Source of the DNA: Methanocellales archaeon
GTDB lineage: Archaea; Halobacteriota; JAWCLZ01
DNA: 11,022 bases
Direction: 5' to 3'
Assembly (NCBI GenBank): GCA_038850285.1
Contig: JAWCMA010000008.1
Span: forward strand, 33,383 to 44,404
Numbering within the stretch: position 1 is the first letter of the stretch; every line of letters begins with the position of its first letter. Positions 792 through 11,022 of the stretch are shown here, one piece after another. The notes beneath the pieces were generated by a model that was not told the origin of the DNA, made no database searches, and saw nothing but the letters and a program-made list of their open reading frames with translations. Both the position numbers and the translations under genes were made by a program.

Positions 792-1091
792 ATGAGATTT
801 GCTATTACCATGTTTATCATAATAAAAACTGCTCTAGCACTTGCAGCTGGATATATAGTTAGCTATTTCTTCCCCTCCAAATTGCAAGCCATTGAAAGAG
901 CTGTAATTGCACTTGGAACTGGAATTGCAATTTTAATTCTCGTCAATTTTTTCCTTCTCGGTTTTAAAGGCGTTATTGAAATAAGAGAGAATTTAATATG
1001 GATTATGGTAATTATAATAATAGCCTTTGGCCTGCAGATATATCTCTATCACCATCTCCATGTCCATTCCCATCTCCATCGCTATCGGTGA
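792..1091 (+). CDS. Small integral membrane protein (about 3 TM helices) with a His-rich C-terminal tail; function unknown
   Basis: The 99-aa ORF has three long hydrophobic stretches (FAITMFIIIKTALALAAGYIVSYFF, AVIALGTGIAILILVNFFLLGF, LIWIMVIIIIAFGLQIYLY). The tail is HHLHVHSHLHRYR. The stop at 1089-1091 lies 5 nt before the pth2 start. The start is uncertain, and Met7 at 810 is an alternative. Confidence 0.5.
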   Translation: MRFAITMFIIIKTALALAAGYIVSYFFPSKLQAIERAVIALGTGIAILILVNFFLLGFKGVIEIRENLIWIMVIIIIAFGLQIYLYHHLHVHSHLHRYR

Positions 1092-1096
1092 ATCCA

Positions 1097-1450
1097 ATGA
1101 GCAATTTTCAATATAAGCAAGTGATCGTTGTAAGAGAGGATTTAAAGCTCTCGAAGGGTAAGTTAGCTGTTCAAGTTGCCCACGCTGCTATAGAGGCCTA
1201 TGAAAAAGCAGAGGAAAAAATAAAGGAAGCTTGGAGAGGTGAAGGCCAGAAAAAAGTGGTGCTTAAAGTAAGCTCTTTAAGCCAATTGCTTGATCTCAAA
1301 GCGAGAGCTGAGAGTTTGGGTTTTGCTTGTGCATTGATCGCAGACGCAGGCTTGACTGAAGTACCCCCTGGGACTATAACTGCACTTGGAATAGGTCCTG
1401 AGAAGGCTGAGAAGCTCGATTCTTTAACTGGTAATTTAAAGCTGCTTTGA
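1097..1450 (+). CDS. pth2: Peptidyl-tRNA hydrolase, archaeal/eukaryotic Pth2 type (117 aa)
   Basis: MSNFQYKQVIVVREDLKLSKGKLAVQVAHAAI...GQKKVVLKV...DAGLTEVPPGTITALGIGP...TGNLKLL matches the conserved Pth2 blocks and the typical length of about 115-120 aa. A GGTGA Shine-Dalgarno sits 5 nt upstream of the ATG at 1097. The longer track ORF starting at 998 overlaps the preceding gene and adds a low-complexity S/P stretch, so I trimmed it. Confidence 0.88.
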   Translation: MSNFQYKQVIVVREDLKLSKGKLAVQVAHAAIEAYEKAEEKIKEAWRGEGQKKVVLKVSSLSQLLDLKARAESLGFACALIADAGLTEVPPGTITALGIGPEKAEKLDSLTGNLKLL

Positions 1451-1490: not shown

Positions 1491-2498
1491 ATGCATCTCA
1501 AGGCATATTTAATTAGGCGAATGCTTTCTCTTCTCCCAGTTCTACTTGGTGTGAGTTTCATTACCTTTGCGGTTTCCCATTTAATACCTGCAGATCCAGC
1601 TAGGATCTGGGCAGGGGCGCGTGCAACCTCTGAGCAGATTAAAATAATTACCGTGCAATATCACCTTAATGAGCCTCTTCACCTGCAGTATTTTTATTAT
1701 CTCAATGACTTGCTGCATTTAAACTTGGGAATCTCGCCTACCACAAATAGACTCGTTGTTCAAGACCTAGCTGAATATTTCCCAGCAACTCTAGAACTTG
1801 CGATTTACAGCATGCTTATTGTAATCATATTTGGAGTTTTCCTAGGCGTGCTTGCAGCATTTCAAAAAAATAAAGCCCTCGATAGCATAATAAAGGGCGT
1901 AGCCACTCTCGGGATTTCAATGCCCATATTTTGGCTTGGCCTTGTACTTCAGCTTATCTTCTATTACCAGCTTGGCCTCTTTCCATATGGGGGGCGAATT
2001 TCAGGAGTGACTCCTCCTGTGCATATAACTGGGCTTTATACTCTGGATAGCTTGCTTAGCTTTAATTTCGAGGCACTGCTCAATAGCTTGTGGTGCCTTG
2101 CACTGCCATCGTTTACCCTGGGCTTTGGTTTAATGGGGATAATTCTGAGACATACAAGGGCAAGCATGTTGGAAGTGCTGAGTCAAGATTATATAACTGC
2201 AGCTAGAGCCAGAGGGCTGCCTGAGCGCAGAGTGCTATTTAAACATGCTCTTAAAAATGCTTTAATACCAACCGCTACCATAGGGGGGTTTCTCTTCGGC
2301 TTGCTCCTTGGAGGGGCAGTTGTCACTGAAACTGTATTTGCTTGGCCAGGTATAGGTCGATATGCAGTTGGCTCAATGTTAAGCCTTGACTTCCCAGCGA
2401 TGATGGGCGTTACCCTGCTTGCGGCTGTTATTTATGTTGTGGTGAATTTTACCGTGGACTTGATCTATGTATTGCTTGATCCTAGAATAGGATATTGA
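1491..2498 (+). CDS. ABC transporter permease, DppB/OppB/NikB type (peptide/nickel, PepT family)
   Basis: The 335-aa protein has the typical N-terminus (YLIRRMLSLLPVLLGVSFITFAVSHLIPADPA). It also has about 6 TM segments and the EAA-like loop (YITAARARGLPERRVLFKHALKNALIP). Confidence 0.9.
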   Translation: MHLKAYLIRRMLSLLPVLLGVSFITFAVSHLIPADPARIWAGARATSEQIKIITVQYHLNEPLHLQYFYYLNDLLHLNLGISPTTNRLVVQDLAEYFPATLELAIYSMLIVIIFGVFLGVLAAFQKNKALDSIIKGVATLGISMPIFWLGLVLQLIFYYQLGLFPYGGRISGVTPPVHITGLYTLDSLLSFNFEALLNSLWCLALPSFTLGFGLMGIILRHTRASMLEVLSQDYITAARARGLPERRVLFKHALKNALIPTATIGGFLFGLLLGGAVVTETVFAWPGIGRYAVGSMLSLDFPAMMGVTLLAAVIYVVVNFTVDLIYVLLDPRIGY

Positions 2499-2502
2499 GA
2501 CC

Positions 2503-3336
2503 ATGCCATTGAATCTGAAGCAAGTGAAGTGGAAAAGCTCAGCAGCGATAGGGGGCGGGATTCTTCTAAGCTTGATTTTGATCGCCATATTTGGACCGAT
2601 TCTCGCACCTAGCGATCCCTATGAGCTGAATTTTGAGGAGAAGCTTCAGCCACCCAGTTTTAAGCATGTCTTTGGAACAGATGAATTTGGCAGAGATATA
2701 TTTATTAGAGTAATACATGGCGCGAGACTTTCACTTGGAATCGCCGCGATAACACTGCTAATTTCAGCTTTACTTGGCACCTTCATTGGAATGATCGCTG
2801 GATATCTAGGTGGCTGGGTCGATGAAATATTGATGAGAATAGCTGACATTTTTCTCTCCATCCCAAGTTTAATTTTAGCCCTTGCAATTACAGCTTCGCT
2901 TGGGCCTAGTTTGAGCAATGTAATGATAGCCATTGGAATTGCTTGGTGGCCATTATATGCGAGATTGATGCGCGCGCAAGTGCTCGGGGTTAAGCAAAAT
3001 CAATATGTACTTGCTTCTCAAGCCATGGGAGGCAGCGCTGGATATATATTGCTTCGCCATATTCTTCCAAATTCAATCTCCCCCATTATGATAAACGCTG
3101 CCATGGATATAGGCAATATCCTCCTTGCAGTAACTGCCCTTGGATTCATTGGATTTGGAGCACAGCCCCCATTTCCTGAATGGGGAAGGCTGGTGGTTGA
3201 TGGAAGGGCTTATTTGCTCTCAGCGTGGTGGTATTCAACGCTACCTGGCTTTGCCATTTTCATTGCAGTGCTAAGCGCAAATCTATTAAGCGATGGCCTC
3301 AGGGATATTCTAGACCCAAGGTGGAAATATGAATGA
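2503..3336 (+). CDS. ABC transporter permease, DppC/OppC/NikC type
   Basis: The 277-aa protein has FGTDEFGRDIFIRVIHGAR, the hallmark of the OppC/DppC N-terminal region. It also has an EAA-like loop (YVLASQAMGGSAGYILLRHILPNSISP). It starts 4 nt after the previous stop. Confidence 0.9.
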   Translation: MPLNLKQVKWKSSAAIGGGILLSLILIAIFGPILAPSDPYELNFEEKLQPPSFKHVFGTDEFGRDIFIRVIHGARLSLGIAAITLLISALLGTFIGMIAGYLGGWVDEILMRIADIFLSIPSLILALAITASLGPSLSNVMIAIGIAWWPLYARLMRAQVLGVKQNQYVLASQAMGGSAGYILLRHILPNSISPIMINAAMDIGNILLAVTALGFIGFGAQPPFPEWGRLVVDGRAYLLSAWWYSTLPGFAIFIAVLSANLLSDGLRDILDPRWKYE

Positions 3337-4228
3337 AGTTTTACTTAGTGTTAAAAACCTTAGAGTGAGCTATTTCACCAGAAGTGGTATAATTAAGGCT
3401 GTCGATGGCGTTAGCTTCGAGGTAAAGAAAGGTGAAACTCTAGGGCTTACTGGGGAAAGTGGATGTGGCAAGACAACAACTGCACTTGCCATTCTCAAAC
3501 TGCTTGCAAATGCGGTAATCGAGGGCGAGGTGCTATTCAATGGCGAGGATCTGTTGAGGAAAACTGAGAAGGAACTTCGATTAATTCGCGGGCGGGAGAT
3601 CTCCATGATATTTCAAGAATCAACTGGTTTAAATCCAGTTTTGAAAATTGGCGATCAAATCCGCGAGGTAATAAAAACACCCGAAAGCTCGCTTGATCCA
3701 ATAAAACTTCTCCGCTTAGTGGAGCTTCCGGAGCCAAAAATTCTGCTGAACTGCTATCCCCATCAATTAAGCAGCGGGATGAGGCAGAGGGTAATGATTG
3801 CACTTGCAATTGCAAGCAAGCCAGAACTAGTGATAGCTGATGAGCCAACTTCAATGCTCGATGCTACCATTCAGCTGCAGATTTTAAATTTGCTGAAGCG
3901 GCTTAAGAGAGAACTCAAACTTGCAATGCTATTAATATCCCACGATTTGAATATATTAAAGCAAATATGCGATAACATAGCATTTATGCACGCCGGCAAA
4001 CTTATAGAGCTATATCCAACATTTGAAAAGCCGCTTCATCCCCATATTCGCGCTCTCCCAGGCATATCTTCAAGTAGTTTGGAGATAGAAGATATTTCTC
4101 CACCTAGAGGCTGCTTTTACCAAAAGCGATGTAAATATGCAGAGCTAACTTGCTATGTTAATGAACCTGAATTCCGCGAAGTAAAACCCGGTCATTTTCT
4201 AAGCTGCCACGTAAGGGGTGGTATATGA
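3329..4228 (+). CDS. ABC transporter ATP-binding protein, DppD/OppD type
   Basis: Motifs seen are Walker A GESGCGKTT, Q-loop MIFQES, signature LSSGMRQR, Walker B LVIADEPTSMLD and H-loop ISHD. The C-terminal Opp/Dpp-type extension carries C262/C268/C275/C293. The gene overlaps the upstream gene by 8 nt. An AGGTGG Shine-Dalgarno lies upstream. Confidence 0.92.
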   Translation: MNEVLLSVKNLRVSYFTRSGIIKAVDGVSFEVKKGETLGLTGESGCGKTTTALAILKLLANAVIEGEVLFNGEDLLRKTEKELRLIRGREISMIFQESTGLNPVLKIGDQIREVIKTPESSLDPIKLLRLVELPEPKILLNCYPHQLSSGMRQRVMIALAIASKPELVIADEPTSMLDATIQLQILNLLKRLKRELKLAMLLISHDLNILKQICDNIAFMHAGKLIELYPTFEKPLHPHIRALPGISSSSLEIEDISPPRGCFYQKRCKYAELTCYVNEPEFREVKPGHFLSCHVRGGI

Positions 4229-5163
4229 AAATCGTGGAAGCTAAAGAATTGCGCAAATACTTCAAGATCAAAAAAGGGCTCATTAGAGGGGAAGAGGTCA
4301 TACGAGCGGTGGATGGAATAAACCTAGAAATCGAAAAAAGCGAGACATTAGGCTTGGTGGGAGAAAGTGGATGTGGCAAGACTACTACTTGCAAGCTGCT
4401 TTTACGCTTATTAGAGCCTGATAGCGGGAGTATAGTTTTTAATGGTATTGAGATTACAAAGCTAGAGAGAACTGAGCTGCAGCAGCTTCGACCGCAGATG
4501 CAAATGATCTTTCAAGATGTATCAACTGCCTTTGACCCGAGGATGAAAATAGAAGAAATAATATGCGAGCCCCTTGTGATTTGTGGAGTAAGCGAGAAAG
4601 AGAAGAAGGAGCGATTGAGGGAAATAATAATAGATACCAAAATAAGCCCCAGTTTATTGGATAAATATCCACATCAACTGAGCACTGGTCAAAAACAACG
4701 CGTGGGAATCGCTAGGGCTTTGATTTTAAAACCCAAGTTATTAATAGCCGATGAACCAATTTCCCACCTCGATGTAGCAATACAGATGCGGATTTTAAAT
4801 CTACTTAAGGATTTAAAGGAGAAGCATAAGCTAAGCTATCTCTTTGTGGCGCATGATTTAAAAGCAGTGAGATACATAGCTAACCGCGTTGCAGTTATGT
4901 ATCTAGGCAAAATCCTAGAAACTGCAAGCTGTGAATCGATCTTCACCAAGCCAGTGCATCCATATACAATTGCATTGCTCGCTTCCTCGAGCTTGCAAGA
5001 GGAATGGCTACTGCTTCAGGGAGAGCCTCCGAGTACACTAAATCCACCTTCTGGCTGCAGATTTCACCCTCGCTGCCCAGTGCGTGAGCAAATCTGCTTT
5101 GAGGAAGAACCGAAGATGGTAAAAGCAGGCAGAGAGCACTTCGCCGCTTGCCATTTTGTTTAA
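4225..5163 (+). CDS. ABC transporter ATP-binding protein, DppF/OppF type
   Basis: Motifs seen are Walker A GESGCGKTT, Q-loop MIFQD, signature LSTGQKQR, Walker B LLIADEPISHLD and H-loop VAHD. The C-terminal extension carries C278/C284/C291/C309. There is an ATGA start/stop overlap with the previous gene and a GGGGTGG Shine-Dalgarno. Confidence 0.92.
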   Translation: MKIVEAKELRKYFKIKKGLIRGEEVIRAVDGINLEIEKSETLGLVGESGCGKTTTCKLLLRLLEPDSGSIVFNGIEITKLERTELQQLRPQMQMIFQDVSTAFDPRMKIEEIICEPLVICGVSEKEKKERLREIIIDTKISPSLLDKYPHQLSTGQKQRVGIARALILKPKLLIADEPISHLDVAIQMRILNLLKDLKEKHKLSYLFVAHDLKAVRYIANRVAVMYLGKILETASCESIFTKPVHPYTIALLASSSLQEEWLLLQGEPPSTLNPPSGCRFHPRCPVREQICFEEEPKMVKAGREHFAACHFV

Positions 5164-5170
5164 TTTTTTT
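5164..5170 (+). terminator. Oligo-T tract (T7) immediately after the ABC operon stop codon
   Basis: The sequence is TAA TTTTTTT at 5161-5170. Runs of 5 or more T are the usual intrinsic termination signal for archaeal RNA polymerase. The tract overlaps the stop codon (5169-5171, minus strand) of the convergent RNA ligase gene. Confidence 0.4.
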
Positions 5171-6293
5171 ACCAAGGCTGTCCTTTTAATACTGCCTTGG
5201 TTTTATCAGTAGTGCTTTGCATTAGCTTGCGGATGTTAACAGCATAACTGCCATCGCTGTCTCTCTTGGGTTCGTCAAATATAGCTTCAACCCCTAAGCG
5301 GCGAAGGTGTGCTTCGAATTCCTCGATGGTTTTTAAACTTCGCACTCTGATGTGAGCATTTTCAAAGATCTGTTTTCCTTCTTTGCATTTCTTTATGCTC
5401 TCAACCATGGGAAGTAAAATGCTCTCGCCCAAGCGATGGGCTCGCTCTATTATTTTCCTCCTAGACTCGTTGAAATCCACCGCTTGAAAGCCCTCTCTTA
5501 TTATACGGGAAAAGAAGAAGTCTTGGCCATATTCATTGAAAAATTGAAAGGCATATCTTAGATCTGCGCAGGTGCTCTCCGAGGAAGTATATTTAATGGG
5601 TGGAACAAGCATATTTGGGTCTTTAACCACTATTCCCTCTCTACCTGCTCTCCCAAGTTTTCTAATAATTTCCTTCACTTTTCTCTCAAGCTCCATAACT
5701 TCATATTCTCCAAAGACCTTCACACTTCGAATTTTATATTTATTTAAAAGCTCTATCCTTTGCTTTACCGGCATCGATTTACCTGTTTCCTTCTCCTTAA
5801 TATCGAATATAAAGAAATCAACCGATTTAACGCCATAAACAGTTTTAGGGACATAGGGATTATCTGGGCCAACCATTTCACCGCAGAGCATTAACTCAGG
5901 GTTGTCTTCGAAGAAATCCACGTCTATTAATTCAATTGCTTTTTCAGTGGTATAGGGACAGATCAAACCACCTCTAGTGAAAGCATAGACTTTTCCCCCG
6001 GCTTTGGCAAGTCTCACATTGTATCCATTCATCTTCTCTTCAATAACAACCCTCTCCAGCCCTGAGAAATTCCTCGCTATTGCTGCAATTGTCATAGCAC
6101 GGCGAATCTTTGGAAATCCCCGAATCACTTCTCCACTAGCAAAAATGACGGTACCAGTTTCAATCTGTCTTATTCCTCTGTCAAATCGAAAATAAGGAAA
6201 AGGATCGAACACCCTCACAATCTTTTTATTCTCAAGCAATCCCTCAAGGCGGTAAACTGGTAAATCTAGTTTCTCAGCAGCTTTCTCAATCAT
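5169..6293 (-). CDS. ATP-dependent RNA ligase, archaeal Rnl3 family (Pab1020/MthRnl-like), 374 aa
   Basis: Covalent nucleotidyltransferase motif I is EEK(87)MNGYNVR, with the Lys codon at 6033-6035. Further ligase-like blocks are CGEMVGPDNPY, DFFIFDI, GREGIVVKD and PPIKYTS. The size, and the position of the lysine after an N-terminal domain of about 85 aa, fit the homodimeric archaeal RNA ligases. The start overlaps the upstream CBS gene stop (ATGA). Confidence 0.8.
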   Translation of the reverse strand: MIEKAAEKLDLPVYRLEGLLENKKIVRVFDPFPYFRFDRGIRQIETGTVIFASGEVIRGFPKIRRAMTIAAIARNFSGLERVVIEEKMNGYNVRLAKAGGKVYAFTRGGLICPYTTEKAIELIDVDFFEDNPELMLCGEMVGPDNPYVPKTVYGVKSVDFFIFDIKEKETGKSMPVKQRIELLNKYKIRSVKVFGEYEVMELERKVKEIIRKLGRAGREGIVVKDPNMLVPPIKYTSSESTCADLRYAFQFFNEYGQDFFFSRIIREGFQAVDFNESRRKIIERAHRLGESILLPMVESIKKCKEGKQIFENAHIRVRSLKTIEEFEAHLRRLGVEAIFDEPKRDSDGSYAVNIRKLMQSTTDKTKAVLKGQPW

Positions 6294-7060
6294 GCGTGCT
6301 TCAAGGCATTGATGATATCTCTTCTCGTAACTATACCCACAATTTCATCTTTAAAGTTGAGCACGGGCAAGCCGCCTATATCCTCTTGAAGCATGAGCGT
6401 CTTTGCATCTTCAATTAAAGTGTTTGTTCTCACATATTTTACATCCATGGTCATGATATCCTCAACTAGAAGCCTCTTCACTCTACTTTCTTGATGCATC
6501 CCTGGAACTAAGTCGCGAAATGATTTGAAGGCTCTTGCGATATCGGTTTCAGTGATTATACCTATAAGTTTGCCCTCTTCAATCACTGGCAGTCTGCCTA
6601 CATCTCGATCGAGCATAAGCCTCCTCACGTGAACCACTCTATCACTCCTAGCAGCGTTTATAGGCTCGCTCATTATCTCAGAAACATAGCCCTCGAGATG
6701 AATTACTTTGAGCACCTCCTTTGGGGTGATCCAGCCTGCAAGTTTGCCTTCATAAACAGCGAGGGCTTCCGCATTTTTCAAAAGAGCTAGGACATCGCTT
6801 AAGGTTGCATCAGGTAATATCTTGCTGTAGTTATTGCTCAAAGCAGTTGAAACGTGAAGCTGAGTGGCTGGAATGCTTCCCTTCCTTCGCGAGCCCAGTA
6901 CTTTAACGATTTCTCTAAGAGTAATAACACCAGCTAGCTCGCCATCGCTAAGTACAAGCATGGATCTCCTCTTCTTTTTCTCCATTAAATCAAGTGCATT
7001 TGAAAGCGCTTCATTTTTATCTATAGTAACAGGTTCCTCCATTATATCACGCGCGAGCAT
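6290..7060 (-). CDS. CBS-domain-only protein, four CBS motifs (two Bateman modules), 256 aa
   Basis: There are four G-h-h-T-x-x-[DE]-h motifs (GVITLREI, GWITPKEV, GIITETDI, GIVTRRDI). Each is preceded by the usual 'DIM..pV.tv' start and an 'hPVh' strand. There is no catalytic domain. The start overlaps the upstream stop by 1 nt (TAATG). Confidence 0.88.
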   Translation of the reverse strand: MLARDIMEEPVTIDKNEALSNALDLMEKKKRRSMLVLSDGELAGVITLREIVKVLGSRRKGSIPATQLHVSTALSNNYSKILPDATLSDVLALLKNAEALAVYEGKLAGWITPKEVLKVIHLEGYVSEIMSEPINAARSDRVVHVRRLMLDRDVGRLPVIEEGKLIGIITETDIARAFKSFRDLVPGMHQESRVKRLLVEDIMTMDVKYVRTNTLIEDAKTLMLQEDIGGLPVLNFKDEIVGIVTRRDIINALKHA

Positions 7061-7905
7061 TAAACTATCCCCTTTGCAATTGCGGCTACAATATCAGTCT
7101 TGGAGATCATCCCCAGCAGTTCTTCATTTTTCACTGTTATGGCATCAACATCTTCTTCAACGATCATTTTCGCAGCATTTATAGCAAGTGCTCGGGATTC
7201 AATTGTGAAGAGAGGGGAAGACATAATATCCTCAGCAATTACCATTACCTTTTTAACATAGCGATATTCTTTAATACCGGCTGGTGAAGATTTGCGAGTG
7301 AGTTTCAATTCTTTATCGATGCCTCGCTCTAGATTTAAATCTACAAATGCAAGGTCTGAGAGGGTAATTATACCTATAGGAGCTCCTTTCCCATTTACCA
7401 CTATTACTCGGTCCGCTCCATTTTCATTCATTTGATCAATTACGTGATTAACCGAGTGATATCTATGCACAGTTACAATGGTTGAGGACATGAGGTCTCT
7501 CACTTTAACTTCAGATTTAGAATTAGAAAACCACTTAACCAAATCTAATGCTGTGAGCATGCCAATTAGCCTTTCATTTTCCATAACTGGCAACCCTCTA
7601 ATGTTATTCTCAATCATTAGTTCAGCAGCTTGCTTAGGCGTGGCAGAGGGATAAATAGTTATTGGCTTTTCAGTCATAACAAGTTTCACGGGAATGCGAT
7701 CAATAGGTCTCCTCCTCCAATTAGGCTCAGCTTGAAGTAACCGCTGGGTTAAATCTGCCTTTGTTACCATTCCAACTAGCTTCTCGCCCTCGGTAACCGC
7801 TAGTCTAGAGATCTTTCGCTTCAACATGAGGTTTCTTGCCCTAGCTATTGTATCCCTAGTAGAGATGGTGTAAACTGGAGTGGACATTATTTCATCTACC
7901 CTCAT
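7060..7905 (-). CDS. CBS-domain-only protein, four CBS motifs, 281 aa
   Basis: The motifs are GMVTKADL, GMLTALDL, GIITLSDL and GMISKTDI. The N-terminus MRVDEIMSTPVYTI is a typical CBS start. A strong GGAGG Shine-Dalgarno lies 6 nt upstream of the ATG at 7905, inside the end of the preceding gene (14-nt overlap). Confidence 0.88.
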   Translation of the reverse strand: MRVDEIMSTPVYTISTRDTIARARNLMLKRKISRLAVTEGEKLVGMVTKADLTQRLLQAEPNWRRRPIDRIPVKLVMTEKPITIYPSATPKQAAELMIENNIRGLPVMENERLIGMLTALDLVKWFSNSKSEVKVRDLMSSTIVTVHRYHSVNHVIDQMNENGADRVIVVNGKGAPIGIITLSDLAFVDLNLERGIDKELKLTRKSSPAGIKEYRYVKKVMVIAEDIMSSPLFTIESRALAINAAKMIVEEDVDAITVKNEELLGMISKTDIVAAIAKGIV

Positions 7906-8860
7906 GCCCTTCCTCCATGGCGCGCAGGAAATCTCTCTCCGTAATTATACCTAGGAGCACTCCATCCTTAATAACTGGCAGTGCTCCAAGATCTTTCTGC
8001 TTCATAACTTCAGCAGCAGTGGCGAGGGTTTCATCGGGGGTAATCGTGGTTAAATCTGCAGACATCAATATCTTCACAGGCATCTCAAGTGCTTCTTGAA
8101 TATGTCCAGTTACAAGCTTGCTGAATACCTCCCCACCTGCGAAGTATTTTAAGATATCGCTCGCGGTTACCATTCCAAGCAATACGCCGCTGCTAACTAT
8201 CGGCAGCCTTCTGAAACCCTCCCCTACCATTAGCTTTATTGCTCTCTCGATCGTGAGGGAAGGTGGAGCTGTGACCACGTTTTTGCTCATATAGTCTTTC
8301 ACAAGCTTATTGCTCATTCTATGTGAAACGATGAATAGCACATCTCTTTCTGAGATTATCCCAGCGATTCTATTTTCCTCATCCAAAACTGGCAGGCCTC
8401 CTTTTTTATGAGTCATCATAAGTGCAAGTGCTTCCTTGAGTGAGCCGCTTCGCTTGATGGTTACTACATTTTTCTCCATTATTTCCCGGACTTCTTCATT
8501 TATAGCTGCAAGCAAATTGCCTGAATATCGATTTTGCACAATTCTATGCCGGTCTCCGCCTCCTAAGAAGTCCATTATATCCAATGCAGTAACTATTCCA
8601 ACAAGTCTATTTGTACCTGCATCTGCAACTGGAATTCTTCGATATCCATATTGAGTCATGGTTTTTATAACGCCCATTACTGTCATTGTGGGAGGTACAG
8701 TTATAACTTCTTTATTTGCAATCTCCATAACTTCGCCATCGCGTTCAGGAATCCTTGATTTAAAATCTACCGGACCAAAGTCCTTGGTGCCTCTTCCAAA
8801 CATCTCCGCGCCTTTCTTAGGGGGAGTTGAGTTTCCGGTTTTTTTAACTTTCCTCATCAT
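7892..8860 (-). CDS. CBS-domain-only protein, four CBS motifs, with a basic N-terminal extension of about 44 aa, 322 aa (gamma-AMPK/MJ1225-like architecture)
   Basis: The motifs are GIVTALDI, GIISERDV, GMVTASDI and GIITERDF. GGG/AGG loops follow motifs 1 and 3. The ATGA overlap with the upstream stop supports the long start at 8860. Met20 and Met45 are alternative starts. Confidence 0.85.
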   Translation of the reverse strand: MMRKVKKTGNSTPPKKGAEMFGRGTKDFGPVDFKSRIPERDGEVMEIANKEVITVPPTMTVMGVIKTMTQYGYRRIPVADAGTNRLVGIVTALDIMDFLGGGDRHRIVQNRYSGNLLAAINEEVREIMEKNVVTIKRSGSLKEALALMMTHKKGGLPVLDEENRIAGIISERDVLFIVSHRMSNKLVKDYMSKNVVTAPPSLTIERAIKLMVGEGFRRLPIVSSGVLLGMVTASDILKYFAGGEVFSKLVTGHIQEALEMPVKILMSADLTTITPDETLATAAEVMKQKDLGALPVIKDGVLLGIITERDFLRAMEEGHEGR

Positions 8861-9639
8861 TCAACCACACTCATATATGCCCTTATGATATCATAGCGAT
8901 CGACGATTCCAACTAGCTTGCTATTTCTAACCACTGGAATCCTTCCTATGTCATATTTAAACATCAATTCAGCAGCTGCTTTTACAGTGCTCTCAGGTGC
9001 CACGGTGTGAACTGGGGTTTTCATGATCTTCTCAACCTTTGGAGTGATGTTCAATTTCTTCCGCTCATCCTCTTTCCCAATTCTAACATAGCCTAATTTC
9101 ACAATATCAGATCTAGTTATGATGCCTATCAATTTGTTTTTCCTTACAACTGGAAATCCCGAAATGCCGAATTCGATCATATTCATCCAGATTTTGCTAA
9201 TTGGATCGTCTGGACTGCAAACTTTAACATTCGCTGTCATTATATCTTTCACCTGCAAATTTGAAAGTTTATCGAGGTCTATTGCTTTAAAAATGTCCAC
9301 GATGCTCAGCATTCCCACGAGCACTGAGGTGTGAGGCGATTCGACCACTGGCACGCGGGTAATTTCACCCTCCATCATTGCCTTGGCAGCTGCTTCTAAG
9401 TCCATTTCAGGGGTTATTACCGGCGTGGGCCTAATGAAGCCCTTGACCGTTATATTTGACTTGGTGCTTGTGATTTTGAGCACATCTTGAATGGTTATAA
9501 CTCCCTTAACTCGATTTTTCTCATCCACAACTGGTAGAGTTCGAAAGCGGTGGTCTCGCATGAGCTGCCTAGCTTTGGTTAGAAATTCGTCTTCTCTGAT
9601 AAATACGGGTCTCTGAGACATCACCTCTTTTATCTTCAT
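8857..9639 (-). CDS. CBS-domain-only protein, four CBS motifs, 260 aa
   Basis: The motifs are GVITIQDV, GMLSIVDI, GIITRSDI and GIVDRYDI. The N-terminus is MKIKEVMSQRPVFI. A GGGGAG Shine-Dalgarno lies 6 nt upstream of the ATG at 9639. Confidence 0.88.
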   Translation of the reverse strand: MKIKEVMSQRPVFIREDEFLTKARQLMRDHRFRTLPVVDEKNRVKGVITIQDVLKITSTKSNITVKGFIRPTPVITPEMDLEAAAKAMMEGEITRVPVVESPHTSVLVGMLSIVDIFKAIDLDKLSNLQVKDIMTANVKVCSPDDPISKIWMNMIEFGISGFPVVRKNKLIGIITRSDIVKLGYVRIGKEDERKKLNITPKVEKIMKTPVHTVAPESTVKAAAELMFKYDIGRIPVVRNSKLVGIVDRYDIIRAYMSVVE

Positions 9640-9664
9640 TGAGAACTCCCCTTTTTTATATAGT

Positions 9665-10246
9665 TCATTCTTTTAGTTCGTCCTTGCAGCTCTCGCAAAC
9701 AAGAGTTCCATTTATTGATTCCAGTGATTCTGAAATTGCACCGCATCTCTCGCAAATACCCTGATCAAAACTTCTAGGGGTTTTGCTTTCTGAAAGAGGT
9801 TCTCGATTTATCTCCATCAATTCCAATAGAGTTTCATTCAGCTCTGCAGATGCCGCAATTACATCTGTGTCTGTGACAATTCCTTGGAGTTCGCCTCTCT
9901 CAACGACAGGCAATCTTCGAATATTCATTTTAACCATCTTCTTCGCCACTTCGATTAAGCTAGAATCAGGCGAGATAGTAATTAAAGGCGATTTCATGAG
10001 ATTGGCTATTTTCATCTCGCTTGGCTTTATATTCGAAGCGATGACTTCCCTGACCATATCACGCTCTGTTACGATGCCAACAGGTTCGCCTTTTTTCATT
10101 ACAATTACGCTACCGACATCGTGTTTTATCATCTCCTTCGCGGCATCCGAGGCATTTCCATTTATATCGATGGTTATGACTTTCTTCGTCATAATCTGAC
10201 TCACTGGGATGTGGCGACTTCGCCTGAGCGATGTTTTTTCAACCAT
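9665..10246 (-). CDS. CBS pair fused to a C-terminal Cys4 Zn-ribbon-like domain (TA0289/TV1335-type architecture), 193 aa
   Basis: There are two CBS motifs (GIVTERDM, GIVTDTDV). They are followed by a linker and C165-E-R-C168...C184-E-S-C187 (CxxC-x15-CxxC; codons 9686-9754). A GAGG(T) Shine-Dalgarno lies about 6 nt upstream of the ATG at 10246. Confidence 0.85.
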   Translation of the reverse strand: MVEKTSLRRSRHIPVSQIMTKKVITIDINGNASDAAKEMIKHDVGSVIVMKKGEPVGIVTERDMVREVIASNIKPSEMKIANLMKSPLITISPDSSLIEVAKKMVKMNIRRLPVVERGELQGIVTDTDVIAASAELNETLLELMEINREPLSESKTPRSFDQGICERCGAISESLESINGTLVCESCKDELKE

Positions 10247-10290
10247 TTTAAACCTCTGAGTATATTCAATAGTTAATACAATTCAATGCC

Positions 10291-10306
10291 TTATCAATTT
10301 TTTGTG
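10291..10306 (-). promoter_or_regulatory. Putative BRE/TATA-like promoter element of the CBS/RNA-ligase unit (minus-strand reading CACAAAAAATTGATAA)
   Basis: It lies 45 nt upstream of the ATG at 10246. A TSS about 25 nt downstream would leave a leader of about 20 nt containing the GAGG Shine-Dalgarno. A near-identical copy occurs at 10819-10832 upstream of the neighbouring gene. It follows the T-tract cluster that probably ends the upstream transcript. Confidence 0.35.
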
Positions 10307-10326
10307 AAAAGCGAAAAGCAAAAGAG
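10306..10326 (-). terminator. Cluster of three T4 tracts on the minus strand (CTCTTTTGCTTTTCGCTTTTC), a possible archaeal terminator for the 151-aa gene
   Basis: The plus strand reads GAAAAGC GAAAAGC AAAAGAG, a perfect 7-mer tandem plus a degenerate third copy. It lies 13-33 nt downstream of the stop at 10339-10341. Confidence 0.3.
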
Positions 10327-10346
10327 CTATTTAGAGAGCTATTTAG
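10323..10346. repeat. Perfect 12-bp tandem duplication (AGAGCTATTTAG x2) spanning the stop codon of the 151-aa ORF
   Basis: Direct reading shows 10323-10334 identical to 10335-10346. On the coding strand this duplicates ...TCT AAA TAG CTC (Ser-Lys-stop). Confidence 0.9.
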
Positions 10347-10794
10347 AAATCCAGAAGGGCGGAATTTCCTGGGTATTCCAATATTGCTTAACAGTGCTAT
10401 GAGGCACTTCTATTCTTAAATTCACAGGCTGCTCAATCGAGCCCCCGTAGAAAAGATAGTAGCTGCCTGCCTCTTTTACAGAATTCCTTGAAATCAACAC
10501 TGCTCCATCGCTTTTGATCTCCAGAGCAGATAAGTCGTTGAAACCATGTAGAGAATTTACAAGCTCTGGCTCAATCGCCTTACTTCCAAGCAGCCATAAA
10601 TAGAATTTAGCAAATATACTTAGTTCATATTCCAAGTAAATATATAGATCGGATCCACTGCTCTTAATGGTAGCTTTCTTAAGCCTTAAAAATTTCTCGC
10701 CATTTGAAGCCAGAGCTAAGCTGCTTGATAAGCTAATTAACAATATTAATAATGTTAATATTAATATTAATGCTATTGCTTTCTTCTTGAGCAT
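10339..10794 (-). CDS. Hypothetical secreted or N-terminally membrane-anchored protein, 151 aa
   Basis: The N-terminus MLKKK-AIALILILTLLILLISLSSSLALA-SNG has a positively charged n-region, a long hydrophobic core and an AxA-like site. I recognise no family in the remainder. There is no Shine-Dalgarno. The promoter-like motif 25 nt upstream suggests a leaderless mRNA. Confidence 0.6.
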   Translation of the reverse strand: MLKKKAIALILILTLLILLISLSSSLALASNGEKFLRLKKATIKSSGSDLYIYLEYELSIFAKFYLWLLGSKAIEPELVNSLHGFNDLSALEIKSDGAVLISRNSVKEAGSYYLFYGGSIEQPVNLRIEVPHSTVKQYWNTQEIPPFWISK

Positions 10795-10833: not shown

Positions 10834-11022
10834 TTACTTCGCCGTCACCAAAGACCAGATCATGAGCAGTGCTAGGAGCAGCAAAAAACCTATGAAAAAC
10901 ATTTTCTGTCTCCTCTGTGATTTGCTAAATTCTCTCTCACATTCCTCGCTGCAGTAAAGCAGCTCAACTTCAACTGCCTTGCCGCATACAAGACAGTGCT
11001 TGTGAGGAATTACTTTGACCAT
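10834..11022 (-). CDS. Small Cys4 zinc-ribbon protein with a C-terminal TM helix (DUF2116-like), 62 aa
   Basis: The sequence is HKH-C10-LV-C13-GKAV...Y-C24-SEE-C28-EREF, followed by a basic stretch (KSQRRQK) and a hydrophobic tail (MFFIGFLLLLALLMIWSLV). The start codon is the last triplet of the window, so an upstream in-frame start cannot be excluded. Confidence 0.6.
   Translation of the reverse strand: MVKVIPHKHCLVCGKAVEVELLYCSEECEREFSKSQRRQKMFFIGFLLLLALLMIWSLVTAK

Follow-up and report, generated by a model that had tools for sequence, protein, structure and literature searches.

A conserved archaeal gene block joins the sri ribosome-hibernation genes to an Rnl3-type RNA ligase gene

Introduction

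The sriABCD operon of Methanosarcina acetivorans, which encodes single ribosomal subunit inhibitors, has been described by Nissley et al. (Nat Commun 2026; PMC13454478), who report how the operon is organised, its inhibition of translation, the phenotype of a knockout, cryo-EM structures and the protection of rRNA. In the 70S-SriA-SriB complex (PDB 9ZNF) and the 70S-SriC-SriD complex (PDB 9ZNI), (i) SriA fills the large-subunit A/P tRNA sites, (ii) SriB threads its N-terminal extension into the peptidyl-transferase centre and the exit tunnel, (iii) SriC is bound at the P/E sites and the 16S 3' end of the small subunit, and (iv) SriD lies in the A site and the mRNA channel of the small subunit (PMC13454478). 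SriA-SriB and SriC-SriD bind pairwise (PMC13454478; bioRxiv 10.64898/2026.01.19.700304). ARC (ARC-P/ARC-A) of Methanolobus sp. ZRKC1 consists of SriC and SriD orthologues; it is stabilised by AMP, which is held via T/D pairs in the CBS pockets, and ATP releases the complex (bioRxiv 10.64898/2026.01.19.700304). Four tandem CBS motifs that bind adenine nucleotides are also found in MJ1225 (PDB 3KH5/3LFZ) and in AMPK gamma.

The Rnl3 RNA ligases include MthRnl (MTH1221), Pab1020 and TkoRnl (TK1545). Recombinant MthRnl is active without partners, and its circularisation of RNA in vitro gives way to dead-end AppRNA above ~50 uM ATP (PMC2577357). The same enzyme is a 3'-deadenylase that takes off a single 3'-terminal adenosine, leaves a cyclic phosphate and is inhibited by ATP, and tRNA was suggested as a substrate (PMC5599603). 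Upon knockout of Rnl in Thermococcus kodakarensis, circular C/D-box sRNAs are lost and aberrant rRNA fragments accumulate (PMC9014305). HARP, which acts on translation-apparatus RNA, has been reported as a conserved genomic partner of Rnl3 (mBio 2025, PMC12153264).

Here, we analyze a locus in an 11,022-nucleotide stretch of DNA from a Methanocellales archaeon (the window) in which sri genes and an Rnl3 gene form one unit. We found no paper reporting linkage of sri to an Rnl3 gene and cbs1, the first gene of this unit: the ligase is unmentioned in the hibernation papers, including the sriABCD paper (PMC13454478), and CBS proteins are unmentioned in the HARP-Rnl3 paper (PMC12153264).

Results

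The first-pass annotation described a packed unit of six genes, with 2+4+4+4+4 CBS motifs in the first five products and an Rnl3 gene last, and the ORFs, junctions, Pfam and HMM results agree with this description (minus strand, 5169-10246; Table 1). CBS is the sole Pfam domain in genes 1-5 (2, 4, 4, 4 and 4 stretches), and a CBS HMM built from the window recovered 18 motifs in it. As read directly from the sequence, the junctions are +25 nt with GGGGAG before the ATG (cbs1/sriA), an ATGA overlap of -4 nt (sriA/sriB), a 14-nt overlap (-14) with GGAGGAAGGG ahead of it (sriB/sriC), TAATG of -1 nt (sriC/sriD) and an ATGA overlap of -4 nt in which the rnl3 start overlaps the sriD stop (sriD/rnl3). 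In the window, rnl3 is translationally coupled to sriD. The view that the CBS genes are divergent paralogues in an old unit is borne out by pairwise identities of 28-33% and by the lack of any DNA-level repeat across the five genes beyond short, weak matches of 20-31 nt.

Table 1. Features of the six-gene unit and its leader in the window
Feature	Position	Strand	Description
cbs1	9665-10246	-	193 aa; one CBS pair and C-terminal four-cysteine Zn ribbon
sriA orthologue	8857-9639	-	260 aa; 4 CBS
sriB orthologue	7892-8860	-	322 aa; 4 CBS and basic N-terminal extension
sriC orthologue	7060-7905	-	281 aa; 4 CBS and basic insert
sriD orthologue	6290-7060	-	256 aa; 4 CBS
rnl3	5169-6293	-	374 aa; Rnl3-type (MthRnl/Pab1020) ATP-dependent RNA ligase
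Intergenic leader 5' of cbs1	10247-10338	-	sequence read and motif scan

The leader contains putative promoter elements of A/T-rich, TATA-like sequence, and AGAGGT stands 7 nt ahead of the cbs1 ATG; sigma-70 promoter scans are inapplicable to archaea. Its T-rich stretch CTCTTTTGCTTTTCGCTTTTC is likely the terminator of the upstream gene. The motif scan placed three T4 runs, which form a T-rich stretch, along with TATA-like octamers at 10290-10350, in line with the proposal of a promoter and a terminator upstream of the first gene. The proposal that such elements occur only there did not hold: TATA-like octamers also lie inside the unit, among them two perfect copies of TTTAAATA, at 8961 and 5748, and because of these octamers the unit may hold internal promoters.

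By alignment, genes 2-5 are full-length, collinear orthologues of M. acetivorans SriA, SriB, SriC and SriD. Each has a different full-length best match in the PDB among the SriA-D chains of 9ZNF, 9ZNG and 9ZNI (248-297 bits), whereas the other paralogue chains score at most 76 bits. Specifically, gene 2 matches SriA (9znf_4) over its full length with 248 bits (1-256 versus 1-259; next paralogue chain, 76 bits only), gene 3 matches SriB (9znf_5) with 297 bits, gene 4 matches SriC (9zni_6) over its full length with 255 bits, and gene 5 matches SriD (9zng_7 and 9zni_7) with 266 bits. As in M. acetivorans, the four 4xCBS genes are consecutive and in the same order, a dual-CBS gene lies immediately upstream, and SriB carries a basic N-terminal extension (residues 1-45; 11 K/R; conserved GPxxF motif). 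Gene 3 also matches MJ1225 (3kh5) with 230 bits; MJ1225 lacks the extension, because the alignment begins at residue 44 of the window SriB. AMPK gamma gives a match of ~38 bits only and, unlike the window proteins, regulates a kinase. The insert of gene 4 (~187-226, between CBS3 and CBS4) contains 9 K/R. The ribose-binding signature G-h-h-[S/T]-x-x-D is kept in 15 of the 18 CBS motifs, and the T..D pair of ARC is found in all four motifs of SriC and in CBS3 and CBS4 of SriD, with T..E in its CBS1 and CBS2.

The locus also differs from its described relatives. In Methanosarcina, spacers of 170-480 nt separate genes that overlap or nearly abut in the window. The dual-CBS gene of the window is only 25 nt upstream of sriA, with its own SD. 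In the window the start of the Rnl3 gene overlaps the stop of sriD, while in Methanosarcina an opposite-strand AIM24 gene lies between the two; in M. acetivorans this gene sits in a gap of 1.2-1.5 kb, and therefore co-transcription is not universal. Methanolobus loci, unlike the window, lack sriA (pattern 10111 or 10011). In strain ZRKC2, related to the ARC strain, the ligase start lies 15 nt after sriD, a point undiscussed in the ARC preprint.

The rnl3 product is an intact Rnl3 ligase. It has Pfam RNA_ligase and Lig_C (the Pab1020 C-terminal region), scores 412 bits against TIGR01209 (cut-off 137) and, like MthRnl, Pab1020 and TkoRnl, combines a nucleotidyltransferase region with the Pab1020-type C-terminal region and identical catalytic residues. 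It matches MthRnl (5d1o) with 316 bits and 49% identity and Pab1020 (2vug) with 206 bits; E85-E86-K87-M88-N89-G90 is invariant among 18 relatives, and Lys87, Asn89, Thr106, Arg107 and Glu139 align with K97, N99, T117, R118 and E151 of MthRnl.

The cbs1 product ends in CxxC-x16-CxxC and has a T..D pair in both CBS motifs; across 64 orthologues, the conservation of GxCExC-x13-GxxxCExC is 90% or higher. The gene corresponds to MA4647, the dual-CBS gene just upstream of M. acetivorans sriA. No specific PDB orthologue was found, the best match being MJ1225 (82 bits), and the solved Sri-ribosome complexes contain no cbs1 protein.

Two lines of the first-pass annotation concerned the neighborhoods of Rnl3 genes. 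The suggestion that CBS-only genes lie at the MthRnl locus of M. thermautotrophicus is correct: five of them (187, 272, 313, 281 and 275 aa), the same five as in the window, are directly upstream of MTH1221. For the proposed census, Rnl3 loci of Methanosarcinales-type lineages, Methanocellales and Methanobacteriales were used if they had 4.6 kb or more of upstream sequence (64 loci). CBS-only genes are strongly enriched in them: 63 of the 64, the MthRnl locus included, carry sriC-sriD directly upstream, and 53 carry the complete set of five CBS genes in unchanged order. The gap between sriD and the ligase gene has a median of 29 nt, and the two overlap in 21 of 78 loci. The same six-gene layout occurs at MTH1221, in Methanobacterium and in the separately sampled Ca. 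Methanohalarchaeum. Conversely, when SriD was the starting point, the ligase gene lay downstream in 55 of the 59 metagenome loci that were informative. Any other gene family recurs in at most 17 of 83 loci, and the flanks of the block are wholly different between orders. In total, the tight, widely conserved linkage of the sri genes to the Rnl3 gene and cbs1 is real, and rnl3 is the conserved last gene of the block in Methanobacteriales, Methanosarcinales-type lineages, Methanocellales and Methanonatronarchaeia, i.e. across two GTDB phyla (Methanobacteriota and Halobacteriota).

The first gene, cbs1, is found at the head of 59 of the 64 ligase loci (53+5+1) and is kept in three of four sri clusters without a ligase gene, the fourth locus beginning within sriA. 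Overall, cbs1 is a more constant companion of the sri genes than rnl3 is.

The linkage is absent from the eight other lineages sampled: Thermococcus, Pyrolobus, Methanopyri, a Methanococcales-like contig, Halobellus and three unclassified archaea have no CBS neighbours of Rnl3. In four of these eight, a PIN_5/HARP gene is beside or near Rnl3 (adjacent in three and 4 kb off in the fourth), whereas the ligase gene has no such gene within ~10 kb in the window, nor at any locus where it is linked to sri. The HARP and sri neighborhoods of Rnl3 look like alternatives.

Discussion

We suggest, as a reading that we hold to be somewhat probable, that the unit is the sri ribosome-hibernation operon extended at both ends (cbs1-sriA-sriB-sriC-sriD-rnl3), with the ligase co-produced and acting in parallel on translation RNAs. 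Going by the characterised orthologues, under energy limitation or long stasis (i) SriA/SriB plug the tRNA sites, peptidyl-transferase centre and exit tunnel of the large subunit, (ii) SriC/SriD plug the mRNA channel and P/E sites of the small subunit and hold the 16S 3' end, (iii) the CBS pockets of SriA-D read AMP against ATP, and (iv) rRNA is thereby protected from decay. The cbs1 product most likely serves this hibernation module in an accessory or regulatory capacity. The reading is supported by the orthology of genes 2-5, the two censuses, the depth of conservation and the specificity of the block. Several observations count against it: an opposite-strand gene separates sriD from the ligase gene in M. 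acetivorans, Rnl3 has no CBS neighbours in the eight lineages named above, in Thermococcales the hibernation factor HibA (TK1186) is encoded far from Rnl (TK1545), no ligase gene was found within 6.6 kb or more downstream of the sri genes in four clusters, and one Methanoperedens ligase locus has no sri genes. A precedent in its favour comes from bacteria, where Balon hibernation-factor genes are sometimes found together with the rRNA-repair ligase RtcB in Balon/RaiA stress operons (Nature 2024, PMC10901736). However, Balon is aeRF1-like and RtcB is a GTP-dependent 3'-P ligase; the proteins are unrelated, the domain of life is another and the linkage is looser.

Alternatively, rnl3 may have no functional connection to the sri cluster and only share its promoter or an inherited position, the adjacency being due to vertical descent. 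The linkage is limited to some methanogen lineages, is broken by the inserted gene in Methanosarcina and is lost in a few sri clusters, and the ligase groups track organismal groups in a rough NJ tree. We nevertheless regard this explanation as unlikely: the six-gene block is conserved though the flanking genes differ even between orders, ATGA-type overlaps recur (21/78 loci), and the block spans two phyla, while in archaea gene order that is not under selection normally erodes far more quickly.

Less likely again is that cbs1 alone is the regulator, sensing adenine nucleotides and possibly redox state or metal via its four-cysteine ribbon and controlling either how Sri proteins load onto ribosomes or how active Rnl3 is. 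Its first position, its retention in sri clusters without a ligase gene, the conserved cysteines and both T..D pairs would fit, as does the statement by Nissley et al. that additional proteins or small molecules must regulate Sri binding (PMC13454478). However, no exponential-phase reads of M. acetivorans span MA4647 and sriA (PMC13454478), the protein is absent from the solved complexes, and the retention without ligase speaks against a ligase-specific role. There may still be regulatory contact between the cbs1 product and the ligase.

Rnl3 could also shut down translation, its ATP-inhibited deadenylase stripping A76 from tRNA CCA ends and leaving a 2',3'-cyclic phosphate, so that tRNAs would be unchargeable during hibernation. 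The in vitro properties of MthRnl and the adjacency of Rnl3 to the tRNA 5'-processing enzyme HARP in other lineages (PMC12153264) point in this direction, but we consider it very improbable, as the deadenylase activity is known from in vitro work only and the T. kodakarensis knockout phenotype lies in circular C/D-box sRNAs and rRNA fragments rather than in tRNA (PMC9014305).

Finally, the first-pass idea that a hetero-oligomeric CBS sensor, bound to the Rnl3 dimer, turns RNA ligation on or off with energy charge drew on the coupling and conserved adjacency, the signature kept in 15/18 motifs and the Sri hetero-pairs responding to AMP/ATP, but is hardly credible, because genes 2-5 are SriA-D orthologues and thus not regulators of the ligase, four of the five CBS proteins have a demonstrated other target in high-resolution structures, no Rnl3 chain is present in Sri-ribosome entries (the ligase query matched only 5d1o, 8uce-type entries, 2vug and 3qwu), MthRnl functions alone in vitro (PMC2577357), many Rnl3 genes have no CBS neighbour, a gene separates sriD from the ligase gene in Methanosarcina, and no CBS-ligase fusion occurs among the 240 homologues listed. 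What survives of this idea is that hetero-oligomers respond to adenine nucleotides, as published for the Sri pairs; their target is the ribosome and not the ligase.

Returning to the extended hibernation operon, the ligase would be outside the control of the CBS proteins and act alongside them on translation-apparatus RNAs in dormancy or recovery. It could seal 5'-P/3'-OH breaks in rRNA, circularise small guide RNAs (C/D-box sRNAs) and so keep them safe from exonucleases, or modify RNA 3' ends. The loss of circular C/D-box sRNAs and the aberrant rRNA fragments in the T. kodakarensis Rnl knockout (PMC9014305) speak for such a role. The chemistry of MthRnl, with RNA circularisation and 3'-deadenylation both inhibited by ATP in vitro, fits a low-energy state. 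We infer that the role of Rnl3 in dormancy would be to maintain the RNAs of the translation apparatus, alongside ribosome occlusion.

Results

Each CBS protein of the unit was searched against PDB sequences, and genes 2-5 returned distinct, full-length best matches (see table) with the remaining Sri chains at no more than 76 bits. The structures that were hit, 9ZNF, 9ZNG and 9ZNI (2026), are Methanosarcina acetivorans 70S ribosomes with SriA-SriB, SriD and SriC-SriD, respectively (PMC13454478). The matches pair genes 2-5 one-to-one with the M. acetivorans hibernation factors SriA, SriB, SriC and SriD, and by best-hit assignment of paralogues the window and all 83 comparison loci share the collinear order sriA-sriB-sriC-sriD. 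Because the matches to the Sri chains are distinct and full-length, genes 2-5 are very probably sriA-D. In M. acetivorans, sriABCD is a single operon for four proteins of four CBS motifs each (Nissley et al., Nat Commun 2026, PMC13454478). In vitro, each of the four inhibits translation, and a quadruple deletion shows a longer lag after 28 days of stasis and depletion of 30S subunits and of the 16S 3' end (PMC13454478). SriA and SriB occupy the large-subunit A and P sites, the peptidyl-transferase centre and the exit tunnel, and SriC and SriD occupy the small-subunit mRNA channel and the P and E sites and also hold the 16S 3' end (PMC13454478).

[quoted passage not shown] Gene 4 has an insert of about 40 residues with 9 K/R between CBS3 and CBS4, placed from the sequence and not by structural alignment to 9ZNI, and the known SriC has a basic beta-hairpin loop by which it touches uS11 and the 16S 3' end (PMC13454478). 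MJ1225 of M. jannaschii (PDB 3KH5/3LFZ), studied as an 'archaeal AMPK-gamma homologue', scores 230 bits against the window SriB from residue 44 onward and is probably an SriB-type protein that lacks the N-terminal extension. A second assembly of the same organism (L084; GCA_038848365.1, JAWCNR010000170.1) is 99.5% identical to window 4674-8510, from which it differs by 8 mismatches and a single length change of 11 nt. Its sriC is called in two pieces of 169 and 112 aa, which points to misassembly or, alternatively, to a strain whose sriC is disrupted.

The observation of a six-gene unit is confirmed by direct reading. The six ORFs encode 193, 260, 322, 281, 256 and 374 aa, and the junctions agree exactly with their earlier description: cbs1 and sriA are separated by 25 nt with a GGGGAG Shine-Dalgarno sequence, the second junction is an ATGA overlap, the third is a 14-nt overlap with GGAGGAAGGG ahead, and the last two are TAATG and ATGA. 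Pfam finds CBS alone in genes 1-5, in 2+4+4+4+4 stretches, and a CBS profile HMM built from the window recovers 18 motifs, four in each of genes 2-5, as had been claimed. The paralogues are divergent, with pairwise identities of 28-33% among the five proteins against roughly 25-30% estimated by eye, and the window DNA has only short, weak matches to itself, in line with the reported lack of nucleotide-level repetition. The sole weak element is the uniqueness of the promoter-like signals: such signals do lie upstream of gene 1, but TATA-like octamers occur inside the unit as well. Rfam and tRNA scans of the window gave no match, and thus the unit contains no C/D-box sRNA or tRNA.

Gene 1, cbs1, encodes one CBS pair followed by a four-cysteine ribbon, CxxC-x16-CxxC, the cysteines of which are at least 90% conserved in 64 orthologues. 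It has the architecture of the class of CBS pair plus Zn ribbon (Ta0289/PF1953 type, MA4647-like) and corresponds to the dual-CBS gene MA4647 of M. acetivorans. Against the solved members of this class its scores are at the generic CBS level only (1pvm, 46 bits; 3ghd, 31 bits), the PDB sequence search gave no specific solved orthologue, and a weak Pfam match to DUF7573 (20.9 bits) falls under the cut-off of 30.2. MA4647 lies immediately upstream of sriA and is not co-transcribed with it in exponential phase (PMC13454478), whereas in the window only the short gap of the first junction separates the two genes.

Gene 6 is an Rnl3 ligase, with 411.8 bits against TIGR01209 (cut-off 136.9), 316 bits against the characterised Methanothermobacter enzyme MthRnl (5D1O) and 206 bits against Pab1020 (2VUG). 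Pfam assigns RNA_ligase and the Pab1020-type C-terminal dimerisation region (PF18330 Lig_C, 154 bits, residues 247-372, model positions 1-125 of 125). The motif-I lysine noted earlier is present in EEK87MNG (KxNG) and invariant in 18 relatives. K87, N89, T106, R107 and E139 align with MthRnl K97, N99, T117, R118 and E151, residues needed for adenylylation or sealing (PMC5599603), and the catalytic apparatus is intact by this alignment. The sequence is identical to a record from a MAG labelled 'Halobacteria archaeon', and the closest other ligases come from Methanocellales MAGs (72-79% identity). The Rnl3 family, homodimeric enzymes that turn single-stranded RNA into circles, comprises 213 clusters at 50% identity among 1.84 billion representatives. 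Among the listed homologues, some from Methanobacteriaceae carry an N-terminal PF14205 Cys-rich domain (P0168, P0170 and P0181; 444 aa) and one carries PF26783 (P0235).

Linkage was scored from both sides. For the ligase side, one genome per species was scanned with the ligase alignment, giving 80 loci from Methanoperedens, ANME-2, Methanosarcinaceae, Methanothrix and Methanocellales, to which M. thermautotrophicus Delta H and Methanobacterium were added, and every ORF was assigned to the best-matching window protein. The array cbs1-sriA-sriB-sriC-sriD lies in this order on the ligase strand at 53 of the 64 loci with at least 4.6 kb of upstream sequence, and at least sriC-sriD lie upstream at 63 of 64, the exception being L036. 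The junction of sriD and rnl3 is conserved and often overlapping (median gap 29 nt, n=78, 21 overlaps). The enrichment of CBS-only neighbours that the first-pass annotation had proposed as a check is thus strong, and its suggestion about the MthRnl locus proved correct, since five CBS-only genes (187, 272, 313, 281 and 275 aa) lie upstream of MTH1221, the MthRnl gene. In a further class, represented by Ca. Methanohalarchaeum thermophilum, all six genes are collinear with the window unit. For the sri side, the SriD alignment was run against metagenomes, giving 80 loci, 59 of them informative, with apparent negatives rechecked by tblastn. The ligase lies downstream of sriD on the same strand in 55 of the 59; nine clusters had seemed to lack it, but in three of them runs of N or the end of the contig concealed the ligase, two were too short and four were true negatives. 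Three of these four still carry cbs1 upstream and the fourth (L140) starts inside sriA; cbs1 is therefore tied more closely to the sri genes than is the ligase.

Beyond these genes, clustering of all ORFs gave no other family in more than 17 of the 83 loci, and the other large clusters were antisense shadow ORFs inside CBS genes. Different orders have unrelated flanks, with genes for an Opp-type ABC transporter and a secreted protein in the window but QueD/QueE-like and prephenate dehydratase genes in Methanobacteriales. The transporter genes converge on the ligase gene with 5 nt between the stop codons (5163, 5169), so that any terminators would lie inside the opposing gene. Neither the 151-aa gene nor the DUF2116 gene is conserved beside sri clusters elsewhere. 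Although Pth2 is translation-related and its gene lies at a distance of 3.7 kb, this proximity is not kept at other loci; as its family matches start at residue 38-40, the true start is probably the ATG near 1097 (MSNFQYK...). At the Methanobacteriales loci L081 and L082, cbs1 is directly preceded by QueD-like (PTPS) and radical-SAM genes, and genes for the C/D-box sRNP core lie downstream of MthRnl; as Rnl3 circularises C/D-box sRNAs the latter placement is suggestive, though perhaps a coincidence. In 17 Methanosarcinaceae loci the next gene after the ligase, on its strand, encodes a 345-aa product that resembles the EF-Tu GTP-binding domain and domain 2 weakly, at scores below threshold. It may be a translation-factor-like protein by which the cluster is extended in this family.

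Features of the window and of comparison loci
Locus	Feature	Position	Strand	Remark
Window	Pth2 peptidyl-tRNA hydrolase	998-1450	+	Pfam and NCBIfam matches from residue 38-40 of longest ORF
Window	Opp/Dpp-type ABC transporter, four genes	1491-5163	+	two permeases, two ATPases, overlapping junctions
Window	Six-gene unit	5169-10246	-	cbs1 to rnl3
Window	Gene 5	6290-7060	-	best PDB chain 9zng_7 / 9zni_7, 266 bits
Window	Gene 4	7060-7905	-	best PDB chain 9zni_6, 255 bits
Window	Gene 3	7892-8860	-	best PDB chain 9znf_5, 297 bits
Window	Gene 2	8857-9639	-	best PDB chain 9znf_4, 248 bits
Window	151-aa protein	10339-10794	-	upstream of unit; N-terminal hydrophobic segment, no family match
Window	62-aa DUF2116 treble-clef zinc-finger protein	10834-11022	-	upstream of unit; C-terminal hydrophobic tail
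L036, Methanoperedens MAG	Ligase	8066-9232		no sri genes
L043, Methanosarcinaceae	345-aa gene	3541-4578	+	~64 nt downstream of ligase, same strand
L080, Methanolobus sp. ZRKC2	sriD	9185-9961		ligase from ~9977, gap ~15 nt
L081, Methanobacteriales	Fibrillarin and Nop5	15425-17222	-	4-6 kb downstream of MthRnl, opposite strand
L082, Methanobacteriales	Fibrillarin and Nop5	17272-19524	-	4-6 kb downstream of MthRnl, opposite strand
L088, unclassified archaeon	PIN_5 (PF08745, HARP-type)	3609-4196	+	4 kb from Rnl3
L090, Thermococcus sp.	uL16	7388-7936	+	65 nt upstream of Rnl3, same strand
L092	PIN_5 (PF08745, HARP-type)	7301-7936	-	adjoins Rnl3
L095, Halobellus rarus	PIN_5 (PF08745, HARP-type)	7156-7845	-	adjoins Rnl3
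L096	PIN_5 (PF08745, HARP-type)	7274-7933	-	adjoins Rnl3

The linkage has limits. In Methanosarcina spp. (L072, L075, L076 and L077) an opposite-strand AIM24-family gene (PF01987, 262 aa) lies in a gap of 1.2-1.5 kb and breaks the coupling of sriD and rnl3 seen elsewhere, and this is the probable reason for the ligase having been left aside in the M. acetivorans study; sriA is absent from Methanolobus and some ANME-2 loci. Among ligase loci with sequence extending far enough upstream, only L036 is devoid of sri genes. Its ligase is preceded by a HIT-like small ORF and a CoaBC-like gene and followed by the convergent Trp/Tyr-tRNA synthetase gene that other Methanoperedens loci have there; the sri block has apparently been deleted or moved. 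Rnl3 has no CBS neighbour in L088, L089 (Methanopyri), L090, L091 (a Methanococcales-like contig), L092, L093 (Pyrolobus fumarii), L095 and L096. In four of these sri-unlinked lineages a PIN_5 gene is next to or near Rnl3, in agreement with the association of Rnl3 with HARP, a PIN_5-type protein-only RNase P, proposed earlier (mBio 2025, PMC12153264); no HARP/PIN_5 gene is near the ligase in the window or at any sri-linked locus. L096 has ribosomal L11/L1/L10 genes and AlaRS just upstream, and the protein encoded next to Rnl3 in L090, uL16, is contacted on the ribosome by SriA and AHA. In Thermococcales the genes for the hibernation factor HibA and for the ligase are far apart, as their numbers TK1186 and TK1545 imply. 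In a rough NJ tree without support values the sri-linked ligases form two groups that follow organismal groups, a pattern that fits long vertical maintenance of the linkage with losses.

Discussion

Rnl3 has been known since 2008 and MthRnl is a widely used reagent, archaeal ribosome hibernation was described only in 2025-2026, and Sri was described in January-June 2026. To our knowledge, Rnl3 genetics is confined to Thermococcus, and there the gene has no linkage to hibernation factors. The components of the unit are thus known, and the striking part of the original finding, the many CBS-only genes, is now explained. In the searchable literature we found no report that the sri cluster has Rnl3 as a conserved last gene (Methanobacteriales, Methanosarcinales-type, Methanocellales, Methanonatronarchaeia) or that it starts with a conserved Zn-ribbon CBS gene, and nothing that ties an RNA ligase to CBS proteins or ribosome hibernation. 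The Sri, ARC, HibA and AHA papers have 0 occurrences of 'ligase', and the HARP-Rnl3 paper has 0 of 'CBS' (PMC12153264); searches for the locus tags MTH1222-1226 found none, and the only tag match was MA4647, in the Sri paper (PMC13454478).

Combining the linkage with published biochemistry, we lean slightly towards the view that the unit is a sri operon with a ligase that serves dormancy or RNA maintenance; a genuine role of this kind for Rnl3, taken by itself, is plausible but falls somewhat short of probable. In this model the hibernation factors and Rnl3 would be co-produced, and Rnl3 would act in parallel on RNAs of the translation apparatus. Loss of Rnl in T. kodakarensis abolishes circular C/D-box sRNAs and leads to accumulation of aberrant rRNA fragments (PMC9014305), and in long stasis rRNA is nicked and trimmed, more so without Sri (PMC13454478). 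Above about 50 uM ATP, MthRnl builds up AppRNA in place of circularisation (PMC2577357), and its 3'-deadenylase activity is inhibited by ATP and leaves 2',3'-cyclic phosphate ends, with tRNA CCA ends suggested as substrates (PMC5599603). Bacterial genes for Balon have in some cases been placed with RtcB (PMC10901736). A stronger reading, in which the archaeal Sri hibernation system has two more members that have gone unrecognised, Rnl3 as the fifth component and the CBS/Zn-ribbon protein as the sixth, is tentative and on balance rather doubtful. On this reading Rnl3, the sealing step of which works best at low ATP, would preserve rRNA, guide sRNAs or tRNA ends during long stasis while Sri proteins plug the ribosome, leaving these RNAs intact or else capped or circularised on purpose, and the Zn-ribbon CBS protein would set the time at which the system engages.

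The main sceptical alternative is that rnl3 and sri share a location for purely historical reasons. Vertical inheritance, the AIM24 insertion and the eight unlinked lineages are compatible with it, the tight junction and the recurrence of the pair amid unrelated flanks speak for a functional tie, and we consider it unlikely. Alternatively, cbs1 alone may be a regulator, either of Sri loading or of the ligase. Its retention in clusters without a ligase would suit the former, its place at the head of complete units would suit either, and we regard the proposal as distinctly improbable. A sub-hypothesis restricted to tRNA ends draws on the suggested CCA substrates, the knockout phenotype concerns sRNAs and rRNA, and we give it little credence. 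Finally, the sensor battery of the first-pass annotation, a CBS hetero-oligomer that gates Rnl3, is the least credible reading: nucleotide sensing as such is reasonable, given that the ARC preprint on the Methanolobus SriC/SriD orthologues reports AMP held via T/D pairs and release triggered by ATP (bioRxiv 10.64898/2026.01.19.700304) and that the signature G-h-h-[S/T]-x-x-D is kept in 15 of the 18 motifs, but Sri orthology makes the ribosome the target, Rnl3 occurs unlinked to CBS genes in eight sampled lineages, precomputed Pfam domains show no CBS-ligase fusion among 240 listed Rnl3 homologues and hence no sign of an AMPK gamma-like dependence, and the effects of ATP on MthRnl chemistry give the ligase an energy gate of its own, independent of a CBS partner.

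In annotation, the genes labelled 'IMP-dehydrogenase-related' or 'CBS domain-containing' upstream of MTH1221 and of its orthologues can be named sriA-D. If the ligase does belong to the hibernation system, published phenotypes of sri/arc deletions might partly reflect effects on the downstream gene: L080 is from a sister strain of the ARC-study organism, and since the ligase begins about 15 nt after sriD (arcA) in Methanolobus-type loci, replacement of arcA/arcP by a cassette could alter its expression. With the residual linkage of sri and rnl3, what Rnl3 does in the cell becomes directly testable, the hypothesis being that RNA sealing, circularisation or end-modification is part of ribosome preservation. 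If this is true, MthRnl, a commercial enzyme long without an assigned physiological role, would serve in dormancy.
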